Of a stretch of DNA of 64,000 nucleotides, positions 22,991 to 42,067 are shown in pieces (position 1 is the first letter of the stretch; each line of letters starts with the position of its first letter). Location of the stretch: positions 19,406,001 through 19,470,000 of the forward strand of contig OZ024752.1 in NCBI GenBank assembly GCA_964016885.1. Reading direction: 5' to 3'. The stretch comes from Eledone cirrhosa. Taxonomy: Eukaryota. The translations under genes were made by a program, and so were the position numbers. The notes under the pieces were generated by a model. That model was given only the letters and a program-made list of their open reading frames with translations. It had not been told where the DNA came from and made no database searches.

Positions 22991-23572
22991 TTATATATAT
23001 ATATATAAATATATATATATATAAAGGTTATATATATATATATATATATATATATATATATATATATATATATATATATATATATATATATATATATATA
23101 TATATATATACATATATACATATACGTGTTTTGCAACGGGTCACTTTGTGGCTCAATGAAAAGTTAATAAATTAAATAATCAGAGCTATATATAATAAAA
23201 CATGTCTATAGAATCACCAAATAAAATATATACCATTTCCTCTCCCAATTAGCATAATTAACCATATAAAAAATCGAATAGATCAAGCTATAAGAATAAG
23301 GCTTCTATGAAGAAATCTCCAACAAATAACCGAAACCAGCCCTTTGCGCCGGCTGCGACGGAATATTTATCGAATAGTTCGACAGCGTAATCGCCCAGAT
23401 ATACAGTCAATTAAACAGAATTAGGTGTAAAATAAACTAGGAGAAAAGAGAATACATTTATTTACCTCGACCATGGTTTCGTCCGCATTTTAAGATATCC
23501 GATAACTTCGGAACCTTGAATGGATTCTTGGCGCGATCAGTTGGGAAAATTTATTGTCTAGATTTGAGCTAA

Positions 23573-23645
23573 CTCCTGAAGAGTCCGGTGCTCAAGGTTC
23601 CGATGTTATCGGATATCTTAAAATGCGGACGAAACCATGGTCGAG
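23573..23645 (+). ncRNA. Type I hammerhead ribozyme (family H1)
   Basis: ctc-CTGAAGA-gtccg...cggac-GAAA-ccatgg-TC-gag; stem III palindrome ACCATGGT; GUC cleavage triplet. Confidence 0.85.
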
Positions 23646-24081
23646 GTAAATAAATGTATTCTCTTTTCTCCTAGTTTATTTTACACCTAATTCTGTTTAA
23701 TTGACTGTATATCTGGGCGATTACGCTGTCGAAGTATTCGATAAATATTCCGTCGCAGCCGGCACGAAGGGCTGGTTTCGGTTATTTGTTGGAGATTTCT
23801 TCATAGAAGCCTTATTCTTATAGCTTGATCTATTCGATTTTTTATATGGTTAATTATGCTAATTGGGAGAGGAAATGGTATATATTTTATCTGGTGATTC
23901 TATAGACATGTTTTATGATATATAGCTCTGATTATTTAATTTATTAACTTTTCATTGAGCCACAAAGTGACCCGTTGCAAAACACGTATATGTATATATG
24001 TATATATGTATATATATATATATATATATATATATATGTAAACCTTTATATGTAATAATCACCCGTTAGGTTGAGACGCAA

Positions 24082-25691
24082 CCATGCCTCTCCTGGTCTT
24101 GATGGTGTTACGTACCTGCTTCTTAAACGTGGTGCGTATTTCCTTCTGCACCAGTTATCACGCTTCTTCCAATTCTGTCTGAACACCAGTGCTACTCCAG
24201 AATAGTGGAAAACTGCCAGTGTCATTCCTCTGTTCAAAAAGGGTGACCGCACATCACCTGTGAACTATCGTCCAGTCAGTCTTACTAGTTGCATCGCCAA
24301 ACTGATGGAATCCTGTGTCAGAGAAACACTTTGGAACTTCTGGAGCTCTCACAGTCTTATCCAGCCCTCGCAATTTGGATTTATCCCCAACTCCAACTGC
24401 TGTGATCAACTTATAGAGTTTCTTGAGGACATCACCCGGATCACTGATGGCGGCTCATGGGTGGATGTTGTTTACCTTGACTTTGCGAAAGCCTTCAATT
24501 CTGTGCCACACAAAAGGCTTATGGCAAAACTCTCTGCAATGGGTGTGAAGGATGATCTTTTTAACTGGTTGATGTCCTTCATTCTCAGTCGAAGAGAGGT
24601 AGTCATGGTTCTGGGACAGCATTTCTCACCATATGAGATGTCATCTGGTGTACCACAGGGATCTGTTCTTGGCCCCCTTTTGTTTGTGGCATATATTAAT
24701 GACATAGATGCCAACTTTAAGAATGCCACGGTACTAAAGTACGCAGACGACATCAAGCTCTACCTTGAGATAAAAAGGACAGATCCTGAACACTATAGAT
24801 CTTGCTTGCAGTCTGACCTGGACACAATGCAACAATGGATCTCAGACTGGCAACTCAAGCTAGCTGTGGACAAGTGCACCACCATACATTTTGGGAGTAA
24901 AAACCCAGCGTCCACATACTCCCTCCACAGCACTAATATCAAGAAGTCTTCTTGTGAACGTGACCTGGGCATTTCGGTCAGCAGCGATTTGCGTTGGACG
25001 AAGCACGTCTCTAAAATTGTCAAGAGGGCCGAGGGTGTCTTAGCATCACTCAGCAAGACCTTTGTCAGCCGCTCTCCAGATATCTATTTAAGGCTGTACA
25101 TGGCTATGGTGCGACCACACTTAGAATTTGCATCACCAGTCTGGAACCCCTATCTTGCTCAGAACATTGACCGCCTGGAAACTGTTCAGAGACATGCAAC
25201 CAAGCGAATACCCTCCATCAGGCATCTACCATACTTTGAGCGCCTTGCTTCCCTGGGCATGGATACATTGAAGCTCCGACGCCTGGCAGCTGACTTGGTA
25301 AACACCCACAAAATTGTTAACCATGTTGCCAACAACAACCCTGAGTACCTTTTTGATATCCATGTGTCTAACACACGTGGACATGCCCACAAAGTCAGAA
25401 AACAGCACAGTTCCCATGACTTTCGGAAACATTTTTTCACGCTCAGAGTTGGAACAAACTACCTTCATCAGTTGTTAGCTGTCGAGACACTGCATCTTTT
25501 AAGGCCTCCATGCTTCCCGAGATCCGCCAACACTACAGCTAATGTTCCCCCTCCATACACATACACACATGTATACCATGACACTGTTCACTTCCCTGAC
25601 ATTTGTGTATTATTCTATGTACTATACATACACCTTTGACGAGTTGTAGTGCACCTGAGCACTTTACACAATAATTTCATTATTATTATTA
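24082..25691 (+). mobile_element. 5'-truncated CR1/L2-type (Jockey group) LINE
   Basis: SPGLDG, VIPLFKKG, NYRPVSLTS, YLDFAKAFNSV, GVPQGSVLGP, YADD, VRPHLEFASPVWNP, TRGH; long open frame 24260-25639; (ATT)n tail. Confidence 0.95.
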
Positions 25692-25832
25692 TTTCTAGCA
25701 AAAAGCCACCAGCCGTAAGCAACTAACCACACTCCTTCCAACCTGACCGCTGCTACGTCACGATTCTTAGCCATTTTTGAATGGATTCTTGGCGCGATCA
25801 CTTTGGAAAATTTATTGTCTAGACTTGAGCTA

Positions 25833-25905
25833 CTCCTGAAGAGTCCGGTGCTCAAGGTTCCGAAGTTATCGGATATCTTAAAATGCGCACGAAACCATGG
25901 TCGAG
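25833..25905 (+). ncRNA. Type I hammerhead ribozyme (family H1, second tandem copy)
   Basis: Same as 23573-23645, with one stem II mismatch (cgcac). Confidence 0.75.
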
Positions 25906-26281
25906 GTAAATAAATGTATTCTCTTTTCTCCTAGCTTATTTTACACCTAATTCTGTTTAATTGACTGTATATCTGGGCGATTACGCTGTCGAAATATTCG
26001 ATAAATATTCCGTCGCAGCCGGTGAGGGTGCAATATGATCCAAAAATCGATTAGAAATGATCTTCATTTTTTCAATTTACTGTGTAATTCGTATTTTCTG
26101 GCATGTTTACATGCCTCCAAATTATATTTGTGTATATACACTTTGGTGCAGTCTCACACACACTGTATTTATATATATATATATATATATATATATATAT
26201 ATATATATATATATATATATATAATATGTATGGTGTATCATGAGAATGTGTCACGAAAGAACTTTGATAAATACATAAATA

Positions 26282-40278: not shown

Positions 40279-40918
40279 GTATATACACACGTATATACAT
40301 ACACATACATATGTACATGTGTATATACATATTTACGCATTTTTTGATGGCCGTTGACTCTTATCAGTTCTTCCGCCCTTTGTCAGGTTTTGCTTTTTGT
40401 CCTGCGGGGTGTCCAAAAACACCCTCCTCACCAAGTAAAGTTGGTGGGGTTGCCAGTTTAGTCGCTGACGACCCGACCATGTGAGAGGTTGTACCGGTTT
40501 ACATGTTACCAGTAGCACTCAAGAGTGACCTGACACATATATACATATACACATACATACACACATACACATATATCTTTACACATACACTCATATATAT
40601 ATATATATATATATATATATATATATATATATATATATATATATATAATAAAACATGTCTATAGAATCACCAGATAAAATATATACCATTTCCTCTCCCA
40701 ATTAGTATAATCAACTATATAAAAAATCGAATAGACCAGGCTATAAGAATAAGGCTTCTATGAAGAAATCCCCAACAAATACCCGAAACTAGCCCTTCGC
40801 GTAGGCTGCGACGGAATATTTATTGAATATTTCGACAGCGTAATCGCCCAGATATACAGTTAATTAAACAGAATTAGGTGTAAAATAAACTAGGAGAAAA
40901 GAGAATACATTTATTTAC

Positions 40919-40991
40919 CTCTACCATGGTTTCGTCCGCATTTTGATATTTCCAATATATTCGGAAATTCGAGCATCGGACTCTTCAGGAG
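40919..40991 (-). ncRNA. Type I hammerhead ribozyme (family H1, GUA variant)
   Basis: Reverse complement of 41452-41524. Confidence 0.82.
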
Positions 40992-41451
40992 TTTGCTCTA
41001 ATCTAACCATTAAATTTTCCAAAATGATCGCGCCGAAAATACATTCAAAATGGCTAAGAATCATGCCGTAGGAGCGGACAGGTTGGAAGGGGTGTGGTAG
41101 TTGCTTACGGCTGGTGGCTATTTGCTAGAAAGCACAGCACAAGACATGTTTTATGATATATAGCTCTGATTATTTAATTTATTAACTTTTCATTGACCCA
41201 CAATGTGACCCGTTGAAAAACACGTATATGTATATATATATATATGTAAACCTTTATATCTAATAATCTCCCATTAGGTTGAGATACAAATTTGGCTGTA
41301 TTGTGCTGTGCTTTCTAGCAAATAGCCACCAGCCGTAAGCAACTACCACACCCCTTCCAACCTGTCCGCTCCTACGGCATGATTCTTAGCCATTTTGAAT
41401 GTATTCTCGGCGCGATCACTTTGGAAAATTTAATGTCTAGATTAGAGCAAA

Positions 41452-41524
41452 CTCCTGAAGAGTCCGATGCTCGAATTTCCGAATATATTGGAAATATCAA
41501 AATGCGGACGAAACCATGGTAGAG
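41452..41524 (+). ncRNA. Type I hammerhead ribozyme (family H1, GUA variant)
   Basis: ctc-CTGAAGA-gtccg...cggac-GAAA-ccatgg-TA-gag. Confidence 0.82.
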
Positions 41525-41721
41525 GTAAATAAATGTATTCTCTTTTCTCCTAGTTTATTTTACACCTAATTCTGTTTAATTAACTGTATATCTGGGCGAT
41601 TACGCTGTCGAAATATTCAATAAATATTCCGGCGCAGCCTACGCGAAGGGCTAGTTTCGGGTATTTGTTGGGGATTTCTTCATAGAAGCCTTATTCTTAT
41701 AGCCTGGTCTATTCGATTTTT

Positions 41722-42067
41722 TATATTATGTTATACTAAAGATTGCTAAACAATATCTCATAAATGGTGCTAACGTGGCTTTCTCTGGTATATTATGTTA
41801 TACTAAAGATTGCTAAACAATATCTCATAAATGGTGCTAACGTGGCTTTCTCTGGTATATTATGTTATACTAAAGATTACTAAACAAGATCTCATAAATG
41901 GTGCTAACGTGGCTTTCTCTGGTATATTATGTTATACTAAAGATTGCTAAACAATATCTCATAAATGGTGCTAACGTGGCTTTCTCTGGTATATTATGTT
42001 ATACTAAAGATTGCTAAACAATATCTCATAAATGGTGCTAACGTGGCTTTCTCTGGTATATTATGTT
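41722..42067. repeat. 67-bp tandem repeat, 5 near-identical copies
   Basis: TATATTATGTTATACTAAAGATTGC period 67. Confidence 0.95.

Follow-up and report, generated by a model that had tools for sequence, protein, structure and literature searches.

H1, a retrozyme-like hammerhead unit without a reading frame in Eledone cirrhosa, and its probable mobilisation by Penelope-like elements

Results

Two loci carry inverted and direct copies of H1

The 64,000-nucleotide (nt) stretch of Eledone cirrhosa contig OZ024752.1 analysed here (the window) harbors H1, a family of hammerhead-ribozyme units without an open reading frame (ORF). Comparison of the window with itself yields five H1 pieces across two loci, A and B, with a unit length of ~641-672 nt and a GC (guanine plus cytosine) content of 35%. 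At both loci, an inverted 5'-truncated copy is joined to a direct copy or partial tandem. The inverted copies were absent from an earlier note on this DNA and are now seen in the self-comparison. The features are listed below; LINE denotes a long interspersed nuclear element and RT reverse transcriptase.

23019..23519, minus strand: locus A inverted copy, from within ribozyme loop II through the unit end
23118-23030: 89-nt (TA)n in the outer part of the locus A inverted copy, followed by ~11 nt of unit start and then flanking (TA)n
23516..24076, plus strand: first, 5'-truncated part of the locus A direct copy, with the ribozyme followed by unit end, (TA)n and unit start
23573..23645, plus strand: type I hammerhead motif, CUGAAGA at 23576, predicted cleavage after GUC at 23642
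23993..24036, plus strand: internal (TA)n tract of the locus A direct copy, from unit end to unit start
24077..25692, plus strand: LINE in locus A, 1,616 nt, 5'-truncated; RT frame 24206-25639; short TAT-repeat tail
25693..26022, plus strand: locus A direct copy, second part, stopping 120 nt past the cleavage site
25833..25905, plus strand: second same-strand hammerhead motif of locus A, one stem II pair broken
40648..41142, minus strand: locus B inverted copy with complete hammerhead (core 40988, GUA), ending in flanking (TA)n at 40593-40647
41142..41726, plus strand: locus B direct copy, a near-monomer of 585 nt in permuted order; last unit part, 14-nt (TA)n, start, hammerhead
41231-41244, plus strand: the 14-nt (TA)n tract of the locus B direct copy
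Core 41455, plus strand: hammerhead motif of the locus B direct copy, predicted cleavage after GUA at 41521

Read in the ribozyme sense, the H1 pieces form a closed ring with no room for a gene. The earlier note held that the unit end runs into the unit start at both loci, and this is borne out, by way of (TA)n, in all three pieces that reach the unit end. The internal tract measures 44 nt in the direct copy of locus A, 14 nt in that of locus B and 89 nt in the inverted copy of locus A. The spacing of the two same-strand ribozymes, proposed to be one monomer once the LINE is removed, also stands. The predicted cleavage sites of locus A, after 23642 and 25902, lie 2,260 nt apart, which leaves 644 nt without the LINE, and 672 nt when the 28 unit nt that are present in locus B and replaced by the LINE in locus A are restored. 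The cut-to-cut monomer of locus B is 641 nt. Up to the (TA)n, 277 nt precede and 350 nt follow the predicted cut. Sequence identity is 97-99% among the copies of one locus and 90-93% between the two loci. Locus A spans ~2.3 units and crosses three ribozyme cut sites, and locus B spans ~1.7 units and crosses two. The inverted and direct copies of locus A overlap by 4 nt. No long terminal repeat (LTR), primer-binding site or polypurine tract is obvious in the H1 sequence, although no dedicated search was made. A segment of ~150 nt (26023-26170) that separates locus A, on its 3' side, from the next (TA)n is unassigned and has no second copy in the window.

The LINE in locus A matches Pfam RVT_1 (E 1e-35). 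We take it to be of CR1 type from bird and turtle RT matches and from general knowledge of such elements. Among the matches listed for its protein (at least 120), none bears a cephalopod name. It shares no similarity with H1 in the self-BLAST, and its insertion into locus A most likely came later. A chimeric element with a LINE RT between two ribozymes was considered and rejected: the LINE is 5'-truncated, absent from locus B and bridged by contigs of two public sequencing runs (X1 and X4, below).

The hammerhead motif is predicted to be weak and dimer-dependent

Four complete H1 motifs are present, with cores at 23576, 25836 and 41455 on the plus strand and at 40988 on the minus strand. The motif is composed of CUGAAGA, a 5-bp (base-pair) stem II, a 38-nt loop II with an inner hairpin, GAAA, a one-pair helix III closed by an 8-nt palindrome, and a 3-bp helix I. 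As the earlier note described, loop II and the cleavage triplet (GUC at locus A, GUA at locus B) differ between the loci, whereas the ribozyme core and ACCATGGT are common to both. Its claim that stem II, GTCCG/CGGAC, is kept holds for three of the four complete ribozymes but fails at 25836, which reads GTCCG/CGCAC.

A strict hammerhead descriptor finds eight matches in the window, four of them H1, while 100 dinucleotide shuffles average 0.01 and never exceed 1. On H1, Rfam Hammerhead_1 reaches 22.9 bits (E 0.0017) and 18.9 bits (E 0.037), both short of its gathering score of 34, and a whole-window Rfam scan has no hammerhead among the matches listed (150 of 159). Save for one unpaired nt after the first box, the H1 ribozyme matches the consensus of Penelope-like elements (PLEs) in the supplement of PMC4209133. 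H1 departs from the canonical hammerhead geometry of a ~6-bp helix I with contacts between loops 1 and 2, having three contiguous helix I pairs and the 38-nt loop II. This geometry is typical, not required, for retrozymes as defined by Li et al. (bioRxiv 10.64898/2026.07.22.740005).

According to our folding calculations, the active monomer fold lies 4.9-9.6 kcal/mol above the predicted minimum, and the fully active dimer is predicted to be 2.5-7.2 kcal/mol lower than two free monomers. Because of these energies, the H1 ribozyme is predicted to be weak and dependent on dimerisation. Circular H1 folds give z scores of -2.0 and -2.6 against 40 shuffles each, a modest signal; folded in isolation, the ribozyme regions are no more stable than shuffles (z 0.02, -0.79 and -0.13).

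Other signals lie in and near the ribozyme. A strong-context ATG in loop III and a donor-like GT just past the cut fall within 23636-23652. A start codon and splice donor at the ribozyme was rejected as a candidate function: with four nearby acceptors tried by hand, the peptides have fewer than 20 residues, and donor positions +4/+5 vary in reads. Upstream of helix I (41335-41440), a donor-like GT and an acceptor-like AG are reminiscent of the Penelope intron, but the AG is variable among reads. Outside H1, type I hammerheads at 27067 (plus strand) and 32796 (minus strand) have palindromic loop III and AUA triplets and belong to other families; an inverted partial copy adjoins the 32796 motif.

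H1 holds no coding remnant, and Penelope-like elements lie nearby

Across the five H1 pieces, no frame stays free of stops for more than 79 codons, consistent with the earlier description of H1 as lacking an ORF. An ORF with RT and GIY-YIG domains between the repeats, the mark of an autonomous PLE, is absent at both H1 loci. A tblastn search with 18 PLE proteins finds no remnant in H1 (best E 0.026, scattered on both strands), and profiles from 68 PLE proteins score at most 2.2 bits on H1 vs 252 for a true PLE in the window. Coding PLE sequence does lie elsewhere in the window.

49230-52512: ORF-bearing PLE, 5'-truncated, Hydra-clade-like; endonuclease frame 50332-51366, minus strand
49327, minus strand, and 52327, plus strand: hammerheads of this PLE
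2700-4723, minus strand; 15559-16585, plus strand; 21864-22212, plus strand: further Hydra-clade-like PLE coding fragments, 36-50% identical to ~700-amino-acid relatives

The relatives of the endonuclease frame are ~700-amino-acid proteins (18 matches) with the motifs RWK, DKT and CxCX5C of the Hydra clade, and they match the four PLE regions of the window, not H1. The Hydra clade, with its CxCX5C motif, is reported to insert in (TA)n. The PLE at 49230-52512 has a ~1-kb untranslated end with internal duplications, an inverted copy and both ends in (TA)n; its inverted-plus-tandem layout and TA-rich ends are as at the H1 loci. In a set of 77 Hydra-like metagenome loci, for which the best 80 of 468 confirmed were retained, the strict descriptor finds a hammerhead in 12. 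The ORF starts 145-158 nt after the cut in seven of the nine measurable loci (219 and 359 nt in the other two), and the cut lies 118-220 nt past the ORF end in six of six. In loci L049, L073 and L076, hammerheads lie between tandem ORF copies or flank an ORF, with a hammerhead spacing of ~2.4 kb in L049.

Insertion anatomy

At locus B, 13 nt are shared between the outer end of the inverted copy and the point at which the direct copy begins on its inner side; in locus A, ~137 nt separate the corresponding end and start. The overlap in locus B is as expected from twin priming on one RNA, the mechanism known from L1. We infer two priming events on one RNA of ~1.7 units at locus B and ~2.3 units at locus A. 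Because this RNA crosses two and three cut sites, respectively, the template would not be a cleaved linear monomer but either a circle or a multimer left uncut. Sequence alone leaves these two templates undistinguished, and the differences within each locus fit a single circle or a uniform array alike. An inverted 5'-truncated copy beside a partial tandem is a described PLE structure (PMC8557442; PMC3846280).

Considering the four outer ends of the two loci, three carry TATAT/ATATA, a site type that makes up 8.7% of the monomer, and two lie in long (TA)n tracts. The four ends fall at four different unit positions, although one end is possibly secondary.

The neighborhood contains further repeats. 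A 67-bp tandem array (41722-42068; 5.2 copies, 98% identical) meets locus B through a TATAT overlap and continues into a fragment like a short interspersed nuclear element. Long near-perfect inverted repeats at 55107-55221, 54604-55083, 52851-53595 and 29712-30163 are possibly more foldback insertions. At 58132-63000, a long 30-bp tandem array has stop-free frames of up to ~350 codons.

H1 is a many-copy, variable family

Of 11 public runs listed, none of them an RNA run, four were compared with 41142-41726 at 84% likeness, the covered part lying outside the (TA)n junction segment 41142-41256; X6-X8, with shares under 0.2, were set aside. H1 matches 775 of 16,285,364 contigs in run X1, 12 of 762,587 contigs in X4, 3 of 6,943,267 contigs in X5, which carries a second species label, and 1,595 of 12,467,656 reads in X9, a restriction-site-associated DNA (RAD) library. 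H1 is thus a many-copy, variable family under at least two species labels. Because only a third of the sampled words are present, the best run may come from a different individual or a relative.

The listing covers 40 of the 115 variants, 15 of the 140 loose ends and 19 of the 790 pieces. Among the variants listed, several equal locus A, loop II is the most variable part and few fall in the core. Among the loose ends listed, well-supported 5' junctions into unrelated DNA lie at 41374, 41382 and 41505. For X1, the share of matching contigs that continue into unlike sequence is reported as 0. Summed contig depth increases toward the 3' side, but this depth is no measure of copy number and was disregarded. 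Ends of the X9 read pile-up at 41289, 41430, 41571 and 41578 were rejected as element ends, since all lie on AATT and reflect RAD restriction cuts. Exact-pattern scans for H1 gave no match in metagenome contigs or prokaryote genomes, and a 24-mer of H1 none in viral contigs; a lone 17-nt viral match to an H1 17-mer was rejected, its surrounding DNA being unrelated and GC-rich.

Discussion

Our data suggest that H1 is probably a non-autonomous PLE of the retrozyme kind, likely copied by the reverse transcriptase and endonuclease of a separate PLE. The inverted-plus-tandem layout, the PLE-type hammerhead and the bias for insertion in (TA)n, seen at two loci, are those of non-autonomous PLEs, while the type I hammerhead in each unit, the lack of a coding frame and a GC content below 50% are those of retrozymes. 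The earlier picture of a retrozyme-like, ORF-less, permuted unit with an internal (TA)n that is mobilised by Penelope RT is therefore supported, and the inverted-plus-tandem layout strengthens its link to Penelope. In this mechanism, read-through transcription would produce an H1 RNA longer than the unit. A Penelope endonuclease would nick (TA)n-rich DNA, and the nicked ends could anneal to UAUAU stretches of the H1 RNA. Two priming events would then give the inverted-plus-direct product. Two ribozymes may pair via the 8-nt palindrome, cleavage being predicted only in the dimer. Such cleavage could release a monomer, which a host ligase might circularise.

Several observations weigh against this reading. 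The right end of locus A lacks TA microhomology, and that of locus B abuts the 67-bp tandem array and possibly arose by a later break. Reverse transcription of PLEs is reported to begin at fixed internal positions, but no two of the four H1 ends coincide. No target duplication is seen at the H1 loci. The window contains a single same-strand ribozyme pair, which is split by the LINE and has one damaged motif (25836). The active dimer lies 1.3-5.1 kcal/mol above the free co-fold (0.6 for the 52327 ribozyme of the ORF-bearing PLE), and the 3-bp helix I competes with an upstream 3-bp hairpin. In addition, no parent of H1 was found by blastn, neither among the other PLE ends of the window nor in the 77 Hydra-like metagenome loci; the latter represent one clade only, and a parent from another clade would escape this comparison.

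If H1 is a PLE derivative of this kind, we lean toward an uncut linear multimeric RNA as the template, with no circles and with the ribozyme as a weak passenger from a PLE end. Both loci cross cut sites, which speaks against a cut linear monomer, and the active monomer fold is disfavoured. PLE hammerheads have been published to cleave poorly in vitro. In vitro, a lizard PLE protein used unprocessed RNA, and ribozyme mutants had no effect on insertion, making the ribozyme dispensable there; one of nine predicted frog retrozyme dimers cleaved (bioRxiv 10.64898/2026.07.22.740005). However, the core and the palindrome are kept between loci 9% apart, and few of the 40 of 115 variants listed fall in the core while loop II varies. 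Published retrozymes of the axolotl, whose helix III is likewise of 1 bp, undergo cleavage in dimeric form and yield circles, and the circular H1 folds are mildly more stable than shuffles. We rate a circle step for H1 as somewhat less likely than not. The circular RNA of ~650 nt proposed in the earlier note would not be a safe inference, given the weak, PLE-type ribozyme predicted here.

The internal (TA)n might be a captured target site, which we consider unlikely. In that case, a 5'-truncated Penelope end would have landed in a microsatellite just behind another copy, so that a gene-free interval of 650 nt came to lie between two ribozymes. The H1 RNA would circularise and prime via its own UA tracts, pairing with nicked (TA)n much in the way that Athena elements exploit telomeric repeats. 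If so, the internal (TA)n would be both a birth scar and a priming tract.

Less probable still, H1 may be just the pseudo-LTR of an autonomous PLE, that is, a duplicated untranslated end, and the two loci 5'-truncated debris. The H1 ribozyme is of PLE type, published opposite-strand ribozyme pairs 100-700 bp apart were described as truncated PLEs, and duplications also occur inside the long untranslated end of the PLE at 49-52 kb. An ORF branching off within 41142-41256, or within 56 uncovered nt, would be invisible in the run comparison. On the other hand, ~2.3 units at locus A and ~1.7 at locus B contain no ORF. Past the cut, H1 continues for 350 nt with no remnant of the ORF that most Hydra-like loci begin 145-158 nt after theirs, and none of the matching X1 contigs is reported to run into unlike sequence.

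Movement by a LINE, or at the DNA level by recombination or in a Helitron-like manner, is quite improbable. LINEs also make 5' inversions, and one sits inside locus A. They are, moreover, named as possible partners in PMC7229834. But H1 and the LINE are dissimilar, H1 shows no fixed 3' tail at its two loci, and both its ribozyme type and its (TA)n ends match PLEs. The least probable explanation is a unit with fixed ends for which the (TA)n is just target DNA, tandems arising from separate copies in the same microsatellite: tract length does vary and PLEs are published to target (TA)n, but the same junction with matching flanks occurs in both orientations in two loci 9% apart, and no direct piece starts or ends at it.

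Mobilisation of animal retrozymes by PLEs has so far been argued from co-occurrence and sequence kinship. H1 adds a Penelope insertion footprint on an ORF-less hammerhead unit, whose permuted ends need a longer-than-unit template. It is a convenient substrate for tests of trans-mobilisation and of circular vs linear templates.

H1 defines no new kind of element, since animal retrozymes have already been described. In the literature on octopus hammerhead ribozymes and on octopus or cephalopod retrozymes, no paper listed describes such an element, the coverage excluding most subscription papers, repeat databases and some supplements. Animal non-LTR retrozymes are tandem ORF-less repeats with type I hammerheads, and their circles have been demonstrated in coral, mussel and axolotl (Cervera and de la Pena 2020, PMC7229834). 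Li et al. (2026, bioRxiv 10.64898/2026.07.22.740005) argue that they derive from PLEs as non-autonomous forms, the consensus lengths being 51-972 bp. Like them, H1 is ORF-less, low in GC and, as far as a single split ribozyme pair shows, head-to-tail with one type I hammerhead, coexists with PLEs and falls inside this size range; its weak palindromic helix III is as in axolotl and newt retrozyme repeats. It is, however, longer than the 170-400 nt retrozyme circles of coral, mussel and axolotl, and differs from the canonical retrozyme motif in its 3-bp helix I and 38-nt loop II, and also in its internal (TA)n. In the window, H1 forms dispersed inverted-plus-tandem insertions as opposed to long retrozyme arrays.

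Like the pseudo-LTRs of endonuclease-bearing PLEs of the Hydra clade (PMC4209133, PMC8557442), H1 has the ribozyme consensus, an inverted 5'-truncated copy, a partial tandem and (TA)n ends. Unlike those PLEs, it has no RT or GIY-YIG ORF and shows no fixed 3' end among the four outer ends of its two loci, and its ribozymes are ~650 nt apart vs 2.4-3 kb. H1 has no sequence match to any autonomous element examined. Favoured 3' ends with a tail of 30-40 bp are a further mark of non-autonomous PLEs. In Chlamydomonas, MRC1 and other non-autonomous Chlamys PLEs (PMC8557442) are ORF-less PLE derivatives, as H1 probably is, with pseudo-LTRs and head-to-tail copies. These elements of an algal host, unlike H1, are mostly reported without canonical hammerheads, and their 3' ends are shared with known parents.

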